Shown here: positions 47,302-54,349 of the stretch, in pieces
Layout of the letters: each line of letters begins with the position of its first letter
Numbering within the stretch: position 1 is the first letter of the stretch
Origin: an uncultured bacterium
GTDB taxonomy: Bacteria; Desulfobacterota_D; UBA1144; Nemesobacterales; UBA2774
Reading direction: 5' to 3'
Length of the DNA: 64,000 nucleotides
Assembly: GCA_963825135.1 (NCBI GenBank)
Contig: CAWGRW010000009.1
Location: forward strand, 2,112,001 to 2,176,000
Position numbers and translations under genes: made by a program
The notes under the pieces: model-generated
Told to the model about the DNA's origin: nothing
The model's input: only the letters and a program-made list of their open reading frames with translations
Database searches by the model: none

Positions 47302-47602
47302 TCCCCCCCCCCACATCGTGTGGCGCAGAACCTGCGCTCGAATACGATCCTGCTGAATCTCCTCAGCTCAAATCAGCAACTGCGATAATTTCGATTGTCA
47401 GCGGCGACTCGCCGCCCCGTTCGTCCAATCTGCGCTGATATACGACATCTATGCTACTCCTTCGCTTCCGCTAATCAATCAAGGTAGCGCATCTGTCCTG
47501 AGCGAAGTCGAAGTGTCGAAGGATTGAACGGGTTATACGCTCATATGTCCGCGTCGGCTAACCGGACATAATGATGGAAAACTCTTTTTTCAACATTCTG
47601 GT

Positions 47603-48139
47603 TTAAGCAATCACTTTTCTTTTCCTAAAGACAACCACGCCAATAATCCCTAAAGCTGCCGCCAAAGCTATAAATCCCCATTGGGAAAGTACCGGGATGT
47701 TATCGGGTGACGGCCTGTTAAGAAAAGTGCAGACAACGCCCGAGTCCGTACCGCTTACGAGACATCCCGCCTGAAACCCGTTTTCTAACTTGGTAAACGT
47801 CATATTGGGAGATGCGGTGCACTGGATATCCGCGAGCTCCCATCCTTCCTGCGCTGCTTCCGTTATCGTAATATTGTCTCCCTTGGATATAAATACATCC
47901 GTGGGTATCGTATTCGAGGTAACGGAGAGCGGAGATTCAATTCCGTTTAAGACCTGGTTAAATTCAAATTCCACGTTCTTTGCGGTTGTCACTTCTTTCA
48001 CAATTCTAATCAGACAGTCACTCTGAGAATAGCTCCTTTTGGTTGATAGGACCAGAAAACTCGAAACAATAATTACTAACAATAAAACCTTGAAAATACC
48101 GTTCCCCACTCTTATCGCCAGCTTGCATGGTCTTTTCAT
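47603..48139 (-). CDS. IPTL-CTERM sorting-domain surface protein with small beta-sandwich domain
   Basis: C-terminal NIPVLSQWGFIALAAALGIIGVVVFRKRK; ITEAAQEGWELADIQC...CTFLN; SD GAGGAGG. Confidence 0.88.
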   Translation of the reverse strand: MKRPCKLAIRVGNGIFKVLLLVIIVSSFLVLSTKRSYSQSDCLIRIVKEVTTAKNVEFEFNQVLNGIESPLSVTSNTIPTDVFISKGDNITITEAAQEGWELADIQCTASPNMTFTKLENGFQAGCLVSGTDSGVVCTFLNRPSPDNIPVLSQWGFIALAAALGIIGVVVFRKRKVIA

Positions 48140-48408
48140 GTCGATCCTCCTCAAAGGAATAACCCAATATTCATTATACGATTTCTCATGAGCCGTTACA
48201 ATCGTTTGCCTAATACCCCGCGGATGACCGGGAAAAGGGTGCAATCGGCATTGAATATGTGATACTGCCCGGGAAACAAGAATTGGGCTTAATCCGTTTT
48301 ATTCGAACGTTCCCTCCTTGAAATCCTGATAACCTATAGCAACAATTTAACAATCTTCACCTAGTTTTGTATAATCCCGGCAACGATACGTGAATTAAAG
48401 GAGGCAAA

Positions 48409-48699
48409 ATGTCGAGAAGCGGAATCAATTTATTCCCATCGGTCGTTATTCTATTTATTACATTCGCAATCTGGTCTCAGGATGCAAACGCTCAAACCTA
48501 CCTGTCTGTCGGCCCGCAGACGAGTGTGCCGGAGAACACGGTAACCGGGGGCGGATGGACCGAGTATTACCGGGATCTCTACAGTAACCATCTAGATGCC
48601 GAAACAGTGTTAAGAAGCTGTCCAGGAAGCCGGTTGATGCTATCCTGTCGACCGACCGGAAGCTCTACACTGGCCCTGCTCGCGCTTATCTGCGCGTAG
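48409..48699 (+). pseudogene. Probably truncated secreted protein
   Basis: SD GGAGG, a signal peptide (ANA|Q) and a domain start (YLSVGPQ...GGW) that ends abruptly after 96 aa, 63 bp from the convergent Hint gene. Confidence 0.5.
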
Positions 48700-48762
48700 C
48701 AACCAGTCTCCGCCTTGAGCACGCATGAACTCGTTCTACTGCGGAGAGTCCTGCTCCAGGCG

Positions 48763-49383
48763 TTAGCCGAAGAAAGGTTGAATCTCCGGCTGAAGAACCT
48801 TACGGATAAAAAAGCCGGAATTCCGGGAAAGCGTGCTCCCGAGCAGAACCCCGTTAGCCCAGTAAAACCCGGTATCTCCTGCGGGGAGTAAATCATATGT
48901 ATAGCCACCACTGTATAGTACTTTTTCTATCGATGTCAGCTTCGCCCCATCTATAATATCGCCCGGAATTAAATCGCTTATTATTCTCTCATCTGCGGTG
49001 GGATGACTGCCTGAAACGTACAGCTTTTTTCCGTCATTTAAAATGAGATGAAATACTACATGACTATTGGGCACCGAAACTTTCGATACTAACTCTATCG
49101 GCTGTATTACCTTGTTTCCGTCCATGTCCAGAGTATATACGGGCATCCCCGGTCTCAATTCAATCATTGGAATATTCCCTTGTGGTGTGGCGATTAACGT
49201 GTCAAATGATAGGCAACCACCCATCCCGTCGTTGCTCTGCGCGTTCGCAGTCGTGAGGTTGAGCTTCTGGTTAAGCATCATGACCGATATGACCGTCGGG
49301 ATGATGAAAGCGCCTTTCGTTAACTTCTCAAGGAACTCACGCCTCTCGGGATTAACGTTGTCCAAATATTTTTTGTCCTTCAT
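48763..49383 (-). CDS. Tat-like leader + Hint (hedgehog/intein-like) domain protein
   Basis: ATG at 49383 with SD GGAGG; ERREFLEK; GG|CLSFDTLIATPQG (block A), SGSHP (block B) and TYDL...FYWANGVLLGS (block F/G, without HN). Confidence 0.88.
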   Translation of the reverse strand: MKDKKYLDNVNPERREFLEKLTKGAFIIPTVISVMMLNQKLNLTTANAQSNDGMGGCLSFDTLIATPQGNIPMIELRPGMPVYTLDMDGNKVIQPIELVSKVSVPNSHVVFHLILNDGKKLYVSGSHPTADERIISDLIPGDIIDGAKLTSIEKVLYSGGYTYDLLPAGDTGFYWANGVLLGSTLSRNSGFFIRKVLQPEIQPFFG

Positions 49384-49721
49384 GGAAATACCCTCCGTTG
49401 TATTCTGGTTAGATACGAGAATGTTTATTTCACAGTATATCACGGCCGGTATTTCCCGTAAAGCGGTAGGCGGTCTATGAAGCCTTACTCGGAACATGGA
49501 GACCCGATTCCCGTCCGAGGCTCTGCTTCGACTTGAACTGACGGGTAGATGCCCGGCAGAACGGCCGGTGACGAACCTTACCGACCGGGTTTTCGGGCCC
49601 GGCCCGGCATACGCCTTTTTCCATACCGGGCTCTCTCCCTTAATACCTTGGTATCGGCGATAATATATACCTTTGTCCAATTGTCGCCCGGACGGCCGGA
49701 GGTTAATCTCAATTCCTGTAC

Positions 49722-49805
49722 AAAAAAAATCCCCCGAGAGTATGGTCTCTCGGAGGACTTGACGCCGATACTTTTGGTCTGCACCGGCATTGAGGTATGG
49801 CTCAA
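49722..49805 (-). ncRNA. Candidate sRNA with three hairpins and an intrinsic terminator
   Basis: Three stems with loops CCAUAC, AGACCAAAA and ACCAUA; the last stem is followed by U8; the G-U pairs form only on the minus strand. Confidence 0.6.
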
Positions 49806-49810
49806 AGCTA

Positions 49811-49839
49811 AAATTAGTTACATATAGGAGTCGTGTCAA
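49811..49839 (-). promoter_or_regulatory. Sigma70-like promoter of the candidate sRNA
   Basis: Minus strand TTGACA (49839-49834), 17 bp, TAATTT (49816-49811). Confidence 0.6.
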
Positions 49840-49915
49840 TACCTGTTATCGACTCCGAATCGAGCGGCCAGGGCGTCCGGTCTTCCCCGCATCTCGGACA
49901 GGGAAGGGGAGAGAT

Positions 49916-50353
49916 ATGGGGTTATTCCCAAAAGGCAGGAAGGGGACCGGTCGCCCGGGGTTTTTCCTGATTTCAGTCCTGACAATCTATACGCTCGACT
50001 GCGCGTCGTCGGCCCGCCCGGAGCTTGAGGATGCAATACTATCCCTCCCCGGGAGCGAGCTTGAGGTGAACGTCAAGTATCCCGACAAGTACGACCCCTC
50101 GACGGGGCGGGAAGGGTTCTCCTGTAAATTTTCTGAGAAGGGCTGCGCCGGTACGTTCAACACGGAGGGCTCGCGTATAGACGTACCTCCGTCACTCGAC
50201 GCCCTCGGTCACGAGATGGAACACTGGATCAACTTCATGCTCTACGGCGAGACGCACGACGAGGACCCGAACGACCTTTCCAATATCTGCAATATCCCTT
50301 CCTACTGCCACCTGTATTCCGAATCGAGGAACCTTTTGTCCTGCCGGCAGTGA
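49916..50353 (+). CDS. Small exported protein with HExxH motif (possible mini-zincin)
   Basis: Hydrophobic N-terminus ending in Cys; ALGHEMEHW; several Cys residues. Confidence 0.6.
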   Translation: MGLFPKGRKGTGRPGFFLISVLTIYTLDCASSARPELEDAILSLPGSELEVNVKYPDKYDPSTGREGFSCKFSEKGCAGTFNTEGSRIDVPPSLDALGHEMEHWINFMLYGETHDEDPNDLSNICNIPSYCHLYSESRNLLSCRQ

Positions 50354-50450: not shown

Positions 50451-51902
50451 TCAGGCCGCGGGCGGAGTCCCGCCGGCTGTCTCCCCTCCGCTTCCTGCGG
50501 CGGCCGAAAGCCCGATTAGAAACGAGAAATAGAACGCGTTCGAGGGTATCTGCAGGTTGAAATCGACGAAGCTGTGAAGGAGTATCGAGAATATCCCCGT
50601 CAGCGCGCCCAGCAGTATGAAGAACCTGAAATAGTCCTCCTCCCCCGCGAGCCTGGTCAGCGATTTAAGCGATGCGTAAAGGAATATACCGAGCGCCGCC
50701 ATGAGTGACGCGAACCCGAGGACCCCGGTCTCGGCGATGAGCTGGAGGTAATCGTTGTGCGCGTATAGGTACACCAGGGGTTTTTCGACGGAGACCTTAT
50801 AGGGTGGATATGCGTAGGCGAACGTGCCCAACCCCGTACCGAAGAGGGGGAAATCCCCGATCATGACGAGCACATCCTTCCAGAGTTCCGTCCTCGAGGG
50901 GAGGTTCTCTCCGACGAGCAGGAATCTCTCGATTACGGGATAGAGACCGATGAACAATCCGAAGAAGACCGCGACCGCGAGAACGGTGTAAACCATCCTC
51001 CCGGGCCCCCTGCCTGACCGGATCAATCTCGTGCTCAGGAATGAGAAGAATACGAGCGAGACGAGAACGCTTAATATGCCCATCCTCGACCTGGAGAATA
51101 ATACCGCAAGGAACGCGATACCCAGCAGGAAAAGAAGAAGCACCTGTTTCTGAAAATTCTCCGAGGAAACTAGACGCCTCATGAGCGGCTTCCCAGCCGA
51201 ACCGGTCCAGTCCCCGAACGAAAGCACATAACCGAGCCCCAGCGGAAAACTCAATTCGAGGAATCCGGCATAGTGGTTCCGGTTGTAGTAGGACCCCGTG
51301 GCGTCTTCCGACCCCCCGCTCACCAGGTACTGGTATATGCCAAGGGCCGCCTCGATGAAAAGCATGGCGAAAACCGGCGCGAGCACGAGCCTTATCCATC
51401 CCGCTGACCTGAAGCTCCTCGAGACCGTGATCCCGAATGCGATACAGGCGAGCAGGAGGAGCGTTTTTCTAAGCGTCGCGTCCGGGTACACGCTTATCGT
51501 ATGGAAACCGTGCCCGACCCCCTCTCCCACCGACGAAAGCACCCTGCCTGCCGTTTCCCAGACCTCGAGACTCTTCCCCGATATAGCGCCCAGCACTGAG
51601 TCCGGGAGCGGGACAATCTGAAAGAGGCATATCAGAACGAATGCAAGGAGGGGCAGGTACGGCCTCGCGCGCACGAAAGGCTTTTCCCCTCCGGCCGTCA
51701 TTTTCAGGGTCCAGACGATGAAGAGCGAGAATGAGAGTACCTCTAGAAAGAGCACTGAACCCGGCCTAACGCTGCCTAGAGGCATGGGGGCAAAGACAAG
51801 CAGCGTCAGTGTGAGGATATATATGAGAATCTGGGCCGCCTTCCCAAATCCGATATGCGCCTCCTTTCGCGCTGCGATTCTGAGCTCCGGTGCGGCATTC
51901 AT
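50451..51902 (-). CDS. O-antigen ligase / Wzy_C-family membrane protein
   Basis: Many TM segments; YYNRNHYAG, SRSRMG, GTGLGTF, AHNDYLQ and HSFVDFNLQIPSN. Confidence 0.92.
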   Translation of the reverse strand: MNAAPELRIAARKEAHIGFGKAAQILIYILTLTLLVFAPMPLGSVRPGSVLFLEVLSFSLFIVWTLKMTAGGEKPFVRARPYLPLLAFVLICLFQIVPLPDSVLGAISGKSLEVWETAGRVLSSVGEGVGHGFHTISVYPDATLRKTLLLLACIAFGITVSRSFRSAGWIRLVLAPVFAMLFIEAALGIYQYLVSGGSEDATGSYYNRNHYAGFLELSFPLGLGYVLSFGDWTGSAGKPLMRRLVSSENFQKQVLLLFLLGIAFLAVLFSRSRMGILSVLVSLVFFSFLSTRLIRSGRGPGRMVYTVLAVAVFFGLFIGLYPVIERFLLVGENLPSRTELWKDVLVMIGDFPLFGTGLGTFAYAYPPYKVSVEKPLVYLYAHNDYLQLIAETGVLGFASLMAALGIFLYASLKSLTRLAGEEDYFRFFILLGALTGIFSILLHSFVDFNLQIPSNAFYFSFLIGLSAAAGSGGETAGGTPPAA

Positions 51903-52213
51903 GCCCGGCCGGGTGCTGTCCTACTCGCCGAAGTATAATGCCGTGTCCGGTTTTTGAAAAATAATTCACCGTCCGCACGGCTCTATAATGTTTTAGCTAC
52001 GGCACTATCTTTCTTATTTGTTTCACAAGACTTACAAAATAGTAGTCAATTAACTAAGGTGCCGGAACCAACCTTCACCCACCTCATCCGCCTTATGATA
52101 TTAGCACCGCAAGTTCTAATATATACAGGGAATTTCATTAATTTCGATACTACACTCAGGCTGATTCCTTTTCTTTCTAATTTAGCTATTTAAACAATGC
52201 CGCGGAATTAAGC

Positions 52214-52241
52214 TTGACAAATAACGGATGAACCCTAAAAT
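52214..52241 (+). promoter_or_regulatory. Sigma70-like promoter of the polysaccharide operon
   Basis: TTGACA-16 bp-TAAAAT about 20 nt before the riboswitch. Confidence 0.65.
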
Positions 52242-52261
52242 TAGCTATAGATGGACCTAAG

Positions 52262-52348
52262 ACGAAAGGGCAAAGCATCCGAAAGGGTGTTGCGCAAAGC
52301 TTGAGGCCTAAAAGCCTGAAAAGGCTCAAGGCGGCTCGGTTGCCGAAG
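52262..52348 (+). promoter_or_regulatory. c-di-GMP-I (GEMM) riboswitch
   Basis: AGGGCAAA-GCATCC-GAAA-GGGTGT-TGCGCAAAGC...GGCCTAA...GGCGGC..GGTTGCCGAA matches the GEMM-I consensus. Confidence 0.9.
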
Positions 52349-52444
52349 TTAGGAGTATTAGGATTACAAACCATTCCTGATTTCCCTTCCTTAACCAGGC
52401 TCCTCCCTTTCATTCCAGTTTTAGGCCCGTATGGGAGGTGTTTA

Positions 52445-53188
52445 ATGAAAGGTTCAGTCTGGAGAATATCGATGTATTCTTGCCTGGCGGCAGCTTTACT
52501 TTTCATCACTTTCGGATCTGCTTCGGCTGACACTCTGCTCGGAAGGGTCACGCTAATAAGAGACGACGGAAAGACGGACGTCTATCCTGTCGTTTCGGGG
52601 AAACGAATATCGTACGCCGAGAAGTCTCTTATAAGATTGTCAGGCGCTACATTCGTGGCCGAAGGCGGCTCCGCACTCGAGGTCCTTGACCGGGGCGAAG
52701 AGTTCGAAATCGGCATTGAAAGGGGAATCGTACACTTTAGAATACAGCCCCAGAGGGCCGTTATATCGTTCGTAACGACGGACGGCAGGTTCGACACCCC
52801 GAAGGTAGTCACGGCGGGAACATCAATGATCGAAGGAACGATCACCGTAGATAAGAACGGGACCGCGGTCGAGCTTGCGGACGGTTCCTTTTCTGTCCTC
52901 ACGCCCGAAGGTCTCAAGACCGTAAATGCGGGGGAAAGAATCGTGATCGCGCAGTCGAACATCGACGGGGAATCGACGGTCGAGACCGAAGACGTGGTCG
53001 CGGACACACCCGCTGAAGACGACACCACCAAACCCGAGGAAACCGGCGCGACCGGAAACAATGGGTCGGGCTACACGGCGGCTGCCGTGATGGGCACGGC
53101 GGTAGCGGGCTCGGTGGCGGGCGTTATTATCGGAGTAACAACCAGCAACGGAGGTGGCGGGGATTCGGTCGCGAGTCCTATAGAATGA
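52445..53188 (+). CDS. Secreted FecR-like beta protein with Gly-rich hydrophobic C-tail
   Basis: SD GGGAGG; signal peptide ASA|D; ERG.VHF...V.L.DG...V.AGE pattern; C-terminal hydrophobic helix + GGGG..SP. Confidence 0.65.
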   Translation: MKGSVWRISMYSCLAAALLFITFGSASADTLLGRVTLIRDDGKTDVYPVVSGKRISYAEKSLIRLSGATFVAEGGSALEVLDRGEEFEIGIERGIVHFRIQPQRAVISFVTTDGRFDTPKVVTAGTSMIEGTITVDKNGTAVELADGSFSVLTPEGLKTVNAGERIVIAQSNIDGESTVETEDVVADTPAEDDTTKPEETGATGNNGSGYTAAAVMGTAVAGSVAGVIIGVTTSNGGGGDSVASPIE

Positions 53189-53316
53189 AGGAAGAAGGAT
53201 AAAAAAATCCCGGGGTAGCAACATAGCCCCTGGCAATTAAGAGCTTCAAGCAGCATCGAGTATGGGGAATAGTTTGGGAATAGTTCTGGCGCTATTTCAA
53301 TTGGGAGGAGACTGCT

Positions 53317-54349
53317 GTGAAGATATATGCTGCATTAGTTGTGTTGGCGCTCCTTATGGCCTCATGCGTAGGGAGAAGCGCACCGAACCCCGCGTCGTAT
53401 GATGGGGGGGGGCAGGGTAATTCAAACGGCAGGAACAGCGGCGCCGTTGAAAAGCAAGAGGTGGATAACCTCAATACAAAACTGTTCAGCGAGACGTCCG
53501 AATCAGGCTTAAATCCGGACACGTATACGATAGGTCCTAACGACCTCCTCAAAGTAAAAGCAATAGAGTCCGACAAATTTACAACCACCGAACGCGTCGA
53601 CATGAACGGGGACATCAACCTCCCATTCCTCGATGACGTGAACGTCACGAACCTCACGCCTGTCCAGGCGGAGCAGAAAATAGAAGACCTACTTCAGGAA
53701 CAAGGGTTCATCAAGAACCCCCATGTCAATGTTTTCGTAGCCGAGCACAAGAGCAAAACCGTTTCCGTCCTCGGATATGTCAATGAACCGGGCAACTTCG
53801 AAATGTTCGGCGAAATGACCCTCCTCGACGCGCTGGCCATGGCGAAGGGGCTTGAAGACGGCGCGGGGACGCTGGCATACATAACGAGGACCCACAACGG
53901 CAGACAGGACAAAATAATGGTCGACCTGGACGATCTGCTGAAAATTGAGGATACGCGCCGGTCAGGGGAACATCCAGCTTCAGCCGGGCGACAAGGTATA
54001 CGTTCCTAAGGCCTCGAACGTTTTTGTGGACGGCGCGGTCAGGTCCCCCGGAAGTTACCCGATTAACGAGGGAGAGACGACTCTCAGCCAGGCGATAGTC
54101 ATGGCGGGCGGGGTCGCCAGTGTAGCCGATGAAGGCGACGTGAGCCTCGTACGATATAAGGGCACGGGGAAGAGGGAAGTCGTTAACGTGGACCTCGAGA
54201 GCATCCAGAAAGGAGCGGCCGAAGACCCGCTGCTCAATGAAAAGGACGCTATTGTCGTCGGTACGAACGGGTTCAAGAGCTTCTTCTACGGATTGAATTT
54301 CAACGTTTTCGGATTGGGCGGAGTGGGCTACAACCCCCCCGCCAGATGA
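53317..54349 (+). CDS. wza: Polysaccharide export lipoprotein (Wza/OPX; +1 frameshift near 53950)
   Basis: Lipobox MASC; YTIGPND, DINLPF and two SLBB domains across the shift (LQPGDKVYVP). Confidence 0.88.

Follow-up and report, generated by a model that had tools for sequence, protein, structure and literature searches.

The window, a stretch of 64,000 nucleotides, corresponds to part of contig C9 in the genome of an uncultured bacterium. On its minus strand we found an uninterrupted reading frame of 206 codons followed by TAA, and the translated protein (P0001, whose residue numbering is used throughout) comprises a 51-residue conserved N-terminal region, a 5-residue variable linker, a complete Hint domain and a 22-residue tail (table 1). 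A longer, TTG-started version of the frame (358 residues) is used by no homologue; because every homologue starts at the position of MKDKK/MSDKK, the 206-residue reading is right. An initial annotation, made from the sequence alone, had described a Hint domain without the terminal Asn, joined straight onto a short peptide, and this description was upheld by alignments, an AlphaFold2 model and Foldseek. The motifs that it listed are all present: E13-R-R-E-F-L-E-K20, A25-FIIPTVISVMM36, A46-N-A48 before Q49, and Q49-SNDGMGG56 followed by Cys57. Promoter-like sites occurred seven times in the region against 2.8 expected, by consensus match alone. A lipoprotein lipobox at M-G-G-C was also considered and was dismissed by eye, the Cys lying about 20 residues past the hydrophobic stretch and the residues preceding it being hypervariable.

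Table 1. Coordinates in the window of the Hint-fused precursor gene and its features
Feature	Position	Strand	Basis
Whole gene, Hint-fused precursor plus stop	48763..49383	-	Open reading frame list and translation; at least 296 relatives at E ≤ 1e-3
GGAGGG resembling a Shine-Dalgarno site, 7 nt from the ATG (49383)	49391..49396	-	Read from the sequence
Promoter-like TTTACG-17-TATACT with TG, lying upstream of the ATG by about 50 nt	49434..49462	-	Consensus match, weak
Conserved leader, residues 1-48	49240..49383	-	Conservation and pN/pS
R14-R15-E-F17 in the leader	49333-49344	-	R15, E16 and F17 invariant (28 aligned members)
F26-x-x-P29-x-V31 in the leader	49291-49308	-	F26 and P29 invariant (28 aligned members)
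A48-Q49-S50-N51, junction motif of the A-x-S-N type, with Ser50 as presumed site of phosphorylation	49231..49242	-	Conservation; analogy with linear polyphosphorylated peptides
Variable tail or 'core', residues 52-56 (DGMGG)	49216..49230	-	Mean majority fraction 0.23
Hint domain, residues 57-184	48832..49215	-	Hidden Markov models, phmmer, alignment, AlphaFold2, Foldseek
22-residue C-terminal tail (LSRNSGFFIRKVLQPEIQPFFG), residues 185-206	48766..48831	-	Partly conserved within the fused family

A genuine Hint domain makes up the C-terminal 150 residues, and it resembles a B-type bacterial intein-like (BIL) domain. An AlphaFold2 model was built from 69 sequences, and its predicted local distance difference test (pLDDT) scores were averaged per 10-residue block; the means were 94-98 for the blocks from 61 to 180 and 90 for block 181-190, and the C-terminal tail was modelled poorly (49 for residues 191-200 and 56 for 201-206). 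Foldseek returned 65 PDB matches at E ≤ 1e-3, of which the top-ranked ones listed were inteins, BIL domains or Hedgehog C-terminal (Hh-C) domains, led by the mini-intein 6qaz (E 7e-9), the BIL domain 2lwy of C. thermocellum and Tetrahymena BIL2 (6y75, E 3.9e-8); the match to Hedgehog Hh-C 1at0 had an E value of 6.3e-7. At the sequence level, phmmer against the PDB aligned residues 108-187 to the C-terminal portion of the engineered intein 6dsl_B (E 1.3e-7), the sequence models matched the N-terminal part of the Hint domain only, and the label PF13403 is precomputed on many close homologues. Among the checks proposed in the initial annotation, hidden Markov models remained below threshold, and structure prediction with AlphaFold2 and Foldseek gave the Hint fold.

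The catalytic set consists of Cys57, the block B residues Ser124-x-x-His127 and the block F residue Asp164. In the 6dsl alignment, 'NGVLLGST' stands over 'NGIVSHAC', so that G182-S183-T184 lie opposite H-(N->A)-C; thus, the His-Asn pair is replaced by Gly182-Ser183, with Thr184 at +1. The earlier observation that the Hint ends in LLGST rather than HN therefore holds for the domain but not for the protein, which continues for another 22 residues. Residues C57, S124, H127, D164, S183 and T184 were invariant in 28 aligned family members; with 42 distant relatives added (69 sequences), S124, H127, D164 and S183 were still invariant, and C57 and T184 were kept in at least 90%. The protein shows the horseshoe beta fold, the N-terminal nucleophile and the block B T/S-x-x-H of the HINT superfamily, and it departs from canonical class 1 inteins in having no His-Asn, no host protein to religate and a tail after Thr184. 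As a review sums up the work of Amitai 2003 and Dassa 2004, B-type BIL domains lack only the C-terminal motif among those for intein splicing, and they are cleaved at the N-terminal junction (PMC7765530); the same combination of motifs was found here, with all N-terminal intein motifs present and the C-terminal motif absent. The likeness to BIL and Hint_2 domains thus extends over the fold, the N-terminal Cys, the block B and F residues and the missing C-terminal His-Asn, and cleavage at the N-terminal junction would be expected; in contrast to BIL domains, which lie inside large variable secreted proteins, the 'N-extein' is here a 56-residue peptide, and its leader surpasses the domain in conservation. 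At residue 111 (window about 49051-49053) the protein has Phe where most homologues have a second Cys (consensus H-x-x-C-H-L), and the Cys111 of the homologues could be a redox partner of Cys57.

The fusion is a conserved feature of a lineage. A word-indexed search identified at least 296 relatives at E ≤ 1e-3 that keep the leader-Hint architecture; the 120 listed were 186-227 residues long and 58-100% identical, and, where named, they were called 'Hint domain-containing protein' or 'hypothetical protein' and came from metagenome-assembled genomes of Thermodesulfobacteriota or Candidatus Dadabacteria. Across the 28 aligned members, residues 1-51 were near-invariant (consensus MSDKKFLDxVNPERREFLEKVTKGAFIIPTVISVMMLNQKLNLTTANAQSN) and were followed by a linker varying in length and sequence and then by the invariant Cys57-Leu58. 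The mean majority-residue fraction over 120 members was 0.90 in the leader (1-51), 0.23 in the linker (52-56), 0.73 in the Hint domain (57-184) and 0.49 in the tail (185-206), where L185 was found in at least 90% of members and an I-R-K motif was conserved. A parsable junction was present in 118 of the 120 relatives. In these, the variable tails were 1-10 residues long, position 50 was Ser in 116 and Thr in two, and the residue before Cys57 was mostly P (34), I (24), V (20), N (13), F (7) or G (6). Thus, the Gly-Gly of the window copy is no family feature, and the ubiquitin-style GG tag suggested in the initial annotation is not borne out, Gly standing at -1 in only 6 of the 118. Searching for carriers of the leader with at least 92 residues, we found 126 proteins; among the 120 listed, 112 were 194-227 residues long, the eight of odd length were all Hint-fused forms that were cut or frameshifted, and no fusion partner other than Hint was seen.

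By sequence comparison, the Hint domain of the fused precursor is one of a far wider family of Hint domains found at C-termini. When 1.84 billion representatives were searched exhaustively with HMMER, 1399 matches reached E ≤ 1e-3, and among the 150 listed only two covered the leader: P0045, a paralogue in the same genome, and P0121, whose leader is degenerate. The remaining listed matches covered residues of about 56-186 only, at 43-54% identity, and in nearly all listed rows the match ended, by eye, no more than about 20 residues from the C-terminus of the protein (one exception was P0228). Thirteen distant proteins of 150-860 residues had unrelated N-terminal parts and ended 1-14 residues after GSTL or its equivalent. 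In the six distant relatives scanned, Hint_2 was the sole Hint-type family besides a weak Vint match, and two of the six passed its cut-off, with 36.2 and 37.1 bits; Hint_2 was also the best Pfam match, both for the window Hint and for the distant relatives. The worry raised at the outset, that homologues might all carry long N-terminal domains and this fusion be a one-off recombinant, was thus justified in its first half, since distant homologues do have such domains; yet the peptide fusion is a conserved lineage, and with at least 296 relatives of the same architecture the one-off recombinant is excluded.

The initial annotation had also proposed a search for Hint-less siblings with variable cores, and this search was positive. 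At least 215 short relatives of 28-91 residues with the same leader were present in the database; none of the 120 listed had a name or a precomputed Pfam domain, and none of the two tested had an NCBIfam match. Following A-[N/D/S]-A-x-[S/T]-x, the tails of the 120 listed were 2-10 residues long (median 5) and hypervariable, with P, D, V, G, A and T as frequent residues, and position 50 was Ser in 118 and Thr in two. The tails of the fused and short forms were of the same kind, and some were identical (MTVP, DN). This peptide family, with a near-invariant leader of about 48 residues, an A-x-S-N junction and a short hypervariable tail, is undescribed and unnamed. Its members are for the most part free peptides of 51-79 residues. 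The source genome itself contained three full-length copies, namely the window copy, a 92% copy on the 3.2-kb contig C17 and a 68% copy on contig C10; C10 also held four leader-only open reading frames, three intact (53, 53 and 65 residues, one of the intact ones being 51 residues if counted from an internal Met) and a fourth degenerate. The intact short peptides of C10 end in ...ANAQSNDN, ...ANAQSNDG and ...ANAQSNDGAVPMPVP.

Among 61 related genomes, matches were found in 19, all of one family; within this family they occurred in 18 of the 32 genomes besides that of the window, and in the seven other families of the order they occurred in none of 28. An intact fused copy was present in 13 genomes, and all 13 also carried short copies. 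Four genomes (G005, G012, G024 and G026) had short copies without a fused one, G007 had short copies and a broken fused copy, and G018 had a short copy and a Hint fragment at a contig end. We calculated the proportions of nonsynonymous (pN) and synonymous (pS) differences over 42 leader codons in 52 copies (14 of them fused) from 16 loci, that is, in 1326 pairs. The mean pN was 0.073 compared with a pS of 0.682, and the pN/pS of the short copies was about 0.11; the window leader was 95-98% identical in protein to the leaders encoded on C10 (that of the fused copy and those of all three intact short ones), with pS values of 0.57-0.77. A Shine-Dalgarno-like motif stood upstream of 48 of the 52 copies, and 37 of 38 short copies had both a start codon and such a motif. 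Judged from these sequence comparisons, the short copies are real genes under purifying selection. The longest short tail in the loci fetched for the analysis below was a 28-residue collagen-like GPT repeat in one copy. Collagen-like G-P-T repeats after A-x-S-N (such as QTGPTGPIGPTGIPGPTG...) were seen at L042 11724-11963 (+) and L043 11475-11675 (+), and a 366-residue collagen-repeat protein is encoded about 0.6 kb before the cluster kinase gene in L041 (4664-5764).

We addressed the genomic context of the short precursors by fetching 14 further loci. The frame picker applied to them was crude and sometimes took antisense frames over real genes (HprK, PqqD and peptides); thus, the locus counts per family are lower bounds. 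Eleven loci with short peptides shared one cluster, in which the short copies stood in tandem and the genes were ordered as PqqD, HprK-like kinase, zero to two fused copies, GT2-TPR, GT2, GT1, one to seven short copies and NTP_transf_5, with a second GT2-TPR sometimes among the short precursors. The GT1 gene, encoding a glycosyltransferase of about 585 residues with a DXD sugar-binding region and a GT1 domain, was found in all 11 loci; NTP_transf_5 and GT2-TPR were found in at least 10 each, GT2 and the HprK-like kinase in at least seven each, and PqqD in at least six, plus L009 by domain scan. Domain scans gave 39.3 bits for PqqD (PF05402) and 135.9 bits for NTP_transf_5. The best NCBIfam match of GT2-TPR was the SunS-family peptide S-glycosyltransferase (62-67 bits against a 350-bit cut-off), and the kinase scored 59.6 bits with HprK_rel_A (cut-off 200) and has a visible GDKGAGKT P-loop. 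The fused copy lay between the HprK-like kinase and GT2-TPR in all seven clusters holding one, a slot that is fixed across four genera, and the short copies lay between the GT1 and NTP_transf_5 genes. Four clusters (L044, L045, L046 and L051) had no fused copy and were otherwise the same, and the crude gene maps showed no gene specific to the fused-copy clusters that might be an acceptor or transferase candidate. Four copies, that of the window and those of L047-L049, were dispersed outside the cluster, and the latter three shared no neighbourhood with the window copy. The expectation of a context like that of ribosomally synthesized peptides that carry post-translational modifications (RiPPs) was thus supported in the cluster of the family, which combines a PqqD-type leader-binding protein with tailoring enzymes.

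A complex prediction for PqqD with a short precursor gave a median score of 0.47, compared with 0.01 for the best of three controls, and lends weak support to an interaction. The mark used was reached by 116 of 157 solved complexes and by 2 of 215 mismatched pairs, and passes at 0.60 or below comprised only 18 of the 157 solved complexes together with both of the passing mismatches; the runs agreed in at least 67% of contacts, and the pLDDT of a partner was as low as 49.

Several other genes recur beside the cluster. A PCMT-like methyltransferase, an extracytoplasmic function (ECF) sigma factor and an M64 peptidase were each found there in six loci. The PCMT/PIMT-like methyltransferase is encoded at L009 16644-17480 (-), with counterparts in five other loci; PCMT/PIMT-like methyltransferases make aspartimides in other RiPP classes, and many of the tails begin with N-D-G or N-D-x, an aspartimide-prone sequence. 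The Peptidase_M64 protein (IgA-peptidase-like, 133 bits) and the ECF sigma factor were observed at L040 370-1677 (-), L009 19169-20000 (+) and in four other loci, and the peptidase is an alternative candidate for leader removal. An enzyme of the MbnB/TglH/ChrH family (324-326 bits) lies a few kb from the cluster at L038 1584-3238 (-) and L040 18917-19840 (+); that of L038 is paired with a DUF2063 protein, and it probably belongs to a separate peptide-modification system. The transporters found beside two of the scanned loci were of the AcrB and major facilitator superfamily types only.

The initial annotation knew of no described system with this architecture. This held for the fusion, since full-text literature searches returned no description of a RiPP precursor fused to a Hint, intein-like or BIL domain, but not for the unfused part, which resembles the linear polyphosphorylated peptides (LPPs) of Bacillota (Popov et al., Nat Commun 2026, PMC13381572). 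LPPs are encoded by lppA-K-B-S-D-N, often inside capsule loci; their precursors have 35-200 residues, with a conserved N-terminus YxxPxVLxHQxIxFETxxS and variable C-termini, and the core of the one studied begins with AQSNWK, whose Ser3 is polyphosphorylated by the kinase (PMC13381572). In the same source, LPPs are called restricted to Bacillota, their final product and biological role are given as unknown, and the lasso-type leader motif for the RiPP recognition element (RRE) is stated as [Y/W]xxPx[L/V/I/A/F/Y] (PMC13381572); Hint, intein and twin-arginine are not mentioned in the paper or in six supplementary files. The likeness comprises a discrete PqqD-type RRE, an HprK-like kinase and an NTP transferase (in the main cluster, not at the window locus), a conserved precursor N-terminus with a highly variable C-terminus, one to several precursors per cluster, neighbouring sugar transferases, an [aromatic]-x-x-P-x-[V/L] motif in the leader, and a core start A-Q-S-N, here A48-Q49-S50-N51, where conservation ends. 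The Dadabacteria system differs from that described in occurring in another phylum, in its longer leader that resembles a signal of the twin-arginine translocation (Tat) or Sec pathway, and in its conserved SunS-like GT2-TPR, GT2 and GT1; in addition, no SipW-like peptidase was found in the genome and no MsbA-like exporter in the cluster flanks scanned (7 of 11 loci). A similar set of an HPr-kinase homologue, a nucleotidyltransferase and a PqqD-type RRE is known from phosphorylated and phosphoglycosylated lasso peptides, since in paeninodin and pseudomycoidin an HPr-kinase homologue phosphorylates a precursor Ser and a nucleotidyltransferase adds hexoses to the phosphate (PMC8498205); unlike in those systems, the cluster loci examined yielded neither a lasso cyclase nor a B2 peptidase.

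The leader itself has an n/h/c layout like that of a signal peptide: RR-x-F-L is followed by a stretch of moderate hydrophobicity, the c-region contains a Lys, and A-N-A stands ahead of Q49. The hydrophobic stretch is about 13-14 residues long, contains a Pro and doubles as the F-x-x-P-x-V motif of RRE type. TatC is encoded in the genome (234 bits), and the Tat-signal models TIGR01409 and PF10518 gave no match at E ≤ 1, although HMMER filters can drop weak matches to such short models. From these sequence features, the chances that the leader acts as an export signal appear evenly balanced. We also speculated that it might have a dual role, serving as a handle for the RRE in the cytoplasm and then as an export signal cut at A-N-A by the housekeeping signal peptidase, which would explain the missing equivalents of LppS and LppD.

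Taken together, we lean towards the reading that the gene encodes a Dadabacteria peptide precursor with a built-in C-terminal Hint autoprocessing domain and an LPP-like maturation. By analogy with phosphorylated lasso peptides and LPPs, the PqqD protein would bind the leader at F-x-x-P-x-V, the HprK-like kinase would phosphorylate Ser50, and the nucleotidyltransferase and glycosyltransferases would decorate the resulting phosphate. Ser50 is the obvious candidate for the kinase, because Ser or Thr occupies position 50 in all 118 fused relatives with a parsable junction and in all 120 short relatives listed. In the fused form, the conserved residues suggest that Cys57 would attack the carbonyl of Gly56 and that an N-S acyl shift would yield a thioester; because there is no terminal Asn, this thioester could not proceed to splicing and would therefore be resolved by an outside nucleophile, so that the leader-plus-core of about 56 residues would be released from the 150-residue Hint-plus-tail. 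Such a Cys57-dependent release of the leader-plus-core is, by analogy, rather probable, because the residues for the first step are conserved and precedents exist in BIL domains, Hedgehog and BIL2. The leader would probably be cut off either at or close to A-N-A once general export has taken place, or else by the M64 peptidase encoded nearby; a general route is suggested because no dedicated peptidase or exporter was seen in the cluster and the leader is signal-peptide-like.

The two precedents for an outside nucleophile differ from the present protein in several respects. Hedgehog carries out the acyl shift step only, and its thioester is resolved by cholesterol (PMC7664689, PMC7765530); Hh-C and Hog domains are C-terminal Hints attached to an N-terminal part that is exported, and they perform the first step only and depend on an outside nucleophile, as the fused precursor would, but here the Hint is followed by just 22 residues without a sterol- or adduct-recognition region, and the passenger is a short peptide. 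In the BUBL loci of Tetrahymena, BIL domains flank ubiquitin-like domains, and BIL2 moves the upstream C-terminus to a lysine without ATP (PMC8616854), which provides a precedent for a BIL or Hint domain transferring the C-terminus of an upstream polypeptide to an amine. BIL2, however, has a terminal Asn (mutated in the crystal form) and carries as its cargo a folded ubiquitin-like domain that finishes with a defined motif, whereas in the fused precursor family the residues before Cys1 are hypervariable.

The Hint domain could instead be a removable C-terminal pro-domain, a possible but somewhat doubtful explanation in which water resolves the thioester and the domain acts as a self-removing cap or as a folding or export handle, for example a folded Tat passenger or a timing device, the released peptide being the same as the product of the short genes. 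BIL domains give mainly cleaved products (PMC7664689, PMC7765530), the fused and short tails are alike down to identical examples, and the crude gene maps contained no acceptor or transferase gene particular to fused-copy clusters, all of which would agree with this explanation; it leaves unaccounted for, however, why a 150-residue domain with invariant catalytic residues is kept in a slot fixed in four genera and why the tail behind it is conserved in a family-specific manner. Because the catalytic residues are invariant, the operon slot is fixed in four genera and the tail is family-specific, we proposed that the Hint domain adds something to the precursor. Capture of the Cys57 thioester by a nucleophile other than water would be one such addition, although we offer it tentatively and consider it rather unlikely. 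The Hint domain would then serve as a built-in activating module that needs no ATP, acting after phospho-glycosylation of the leader-bound peptide on Ser50. A lipid, a glycan of the envelope or an amine may act as the nucleophile, as may the N-terminus of the peptide itself after leader removal, and with such capture the fused precursors may give a C-terminally anchored, conjugated or cyclised product and the short precursors a free one.

A different role, as a membrane-anchored glycan scaffold, appears improbable. In this view, the four to five transferases would assemble a phospho-linked glycan on Ser50, with the uncleaved leader as a signal anchor and the variable tail as a spacer, and the Hint version would fix the C-terminus covalently to an envelope component. 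The cluster is indeed dominated by glycosyltransferases, the tails are rich in Pro, Asp, Val, Gly and Ala and linker-like, with a median of 5 residues, and LPP clusters of unknown final product lie within capsule loci (PMC13381572). In addition, a Wzy_C-family gene stands at about 1 kb and polysaccharide-export genes at about 4 kb from the window copy, but this proximity was absent at the other three dispersed copies, and with a hydrophobic stretch of only about 13-14 residues that includes a Pro, membrane insertion would be hypothetical. Least probable, and indeed very unlikely, is a plain exported Hint protein whose leader is only a Tat or Sec signal, whose Hint and tail work in the periplasm and whose short open reading frames are remnants: RR-x-F-L, the hydrophobic stretch, A-N-A and the genomic TatC (234 bits) would fit, as would the membrane-anchor-like segments with which proteins ending in distant Hint relatives start and the lack of an exporter gene in the cluster flanks scanned, but signal peptides are rarely the best-conserved part of a protein (0.90 for the leader compared with 0.73 for the Hint domain), the Tat-signal models did not match, and the short copies are under purifying selection, have start codons and Shine-Dalgarno-like motifs in 37 of 38 cases and occupy a fixed operon slot in 11 loci beside a PqqD-type leader-binding protein.

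Several observations also weigh against our preferred reading of an autoprocessing peptide precursor with LPP-like maturation. On the side of the Hint domain, the scores with Pfam Hint_2 (PF13403; 20.6 bits against a gathering cut-off of 28.4, over residues 57-92 alone) and with intein_Nterm TIGR01445 (21.7 against 24.5 bits) are sub-threshold. Pro at -1 is unfavourable for the intein acyl shift and weighs against efficient cleavage in part of the family, where 34 of the 118 relatives have it; the window copy has Gly. Mere hydrolysis would yield the product that the short genes already encode, and would leave the Hint domain unexplained. On the side of maturation, the kinase falls below the cut-offs of both HprK_rel_A and Hpr_kinase_C, and the PqqD profile found no LPP RRE in the PDB, its best matches being the PqqD 5sxy (E 0.18) and TfuB1 6jx3 (E 0.31). 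In place of the Tyr or Trp of LPP and lasso leaders, this leader has Phe, and Ser follows Pro at a distance of 21 residues instead of 15, six more. No ABC-transporter domain was detected among the frames scanned in 7 of the 11 loci, where crude frame picking makes a miss possible, and the archaeal-type signal peptidase model TIGR02228 reached at best 16.7 bits, against 51.85, in the whole 94%-complete genome. Finally, because the window copy is on another contig, it is the identity of its leader that connects it with the cluster enzymes.

If the Hint domain works as its conserved residues suggest, the chemistry of a peptide C-terminal thioester, which protein engineers take from inteins, would already be used by nature in peptide maturation, with the unfused precursors of the same operon as a built-in control. 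Should a nucleophile other than water capture the thioester, nature would have its own version of intein-based 'expressed protein ligation', and bacteria a parallel to the attachment of cholesterol in Hedgehog. In addition, the LPP-type module of kinase, nucleotidyltransferase and RRE would be extended to a new phylum, with a signal-peptide-like leader and conserved peptide-type glycosyltransferases. The system is small, consisting of a protein of 206 residues and a six-gene cluster.

Within the source genome, contig C17 (L002, 1-3211) repeats the window at about 47600-50350: an HExxH open reading frame, a Hint-fused gene and an IPTL-CTERM gene are all present, and protein identity is about 92%. 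In the C17 Hint gene, residues of about 77-105 are read in another frame, as a compensated double frameshift, and this locus may represent a strain variant, a duplicate in decay or an artefact of assembly. Just downstream of the Hint gene, at 47603-48244 (-), the window encodes an exported protein of 213 residues with a prealbumin-like SpaA_4 domain and an IPTL-CTERM sorting signal (PF18203, 23.9 bits; TIGR04174, 27.8 bits); no IPTL-CTERM gene linked to the Hint gene was seen in other genomes. On the other side, a divergent open reading frame of 187 residues at 49790-50353 (+) contains HEMEH (HExxH), has no Pfam or NCBIfam match and is kept beside the C17 copy. Upstream of the Hint gene by 1-5 kb, at 50451-54349, lie a Wzy_C (O-antigen-ligase-like) gene and Poly_export/SLBB polysaccharide-export genes, of which the SLBB gene appears to be split (53317-54009 and 53945-54349).

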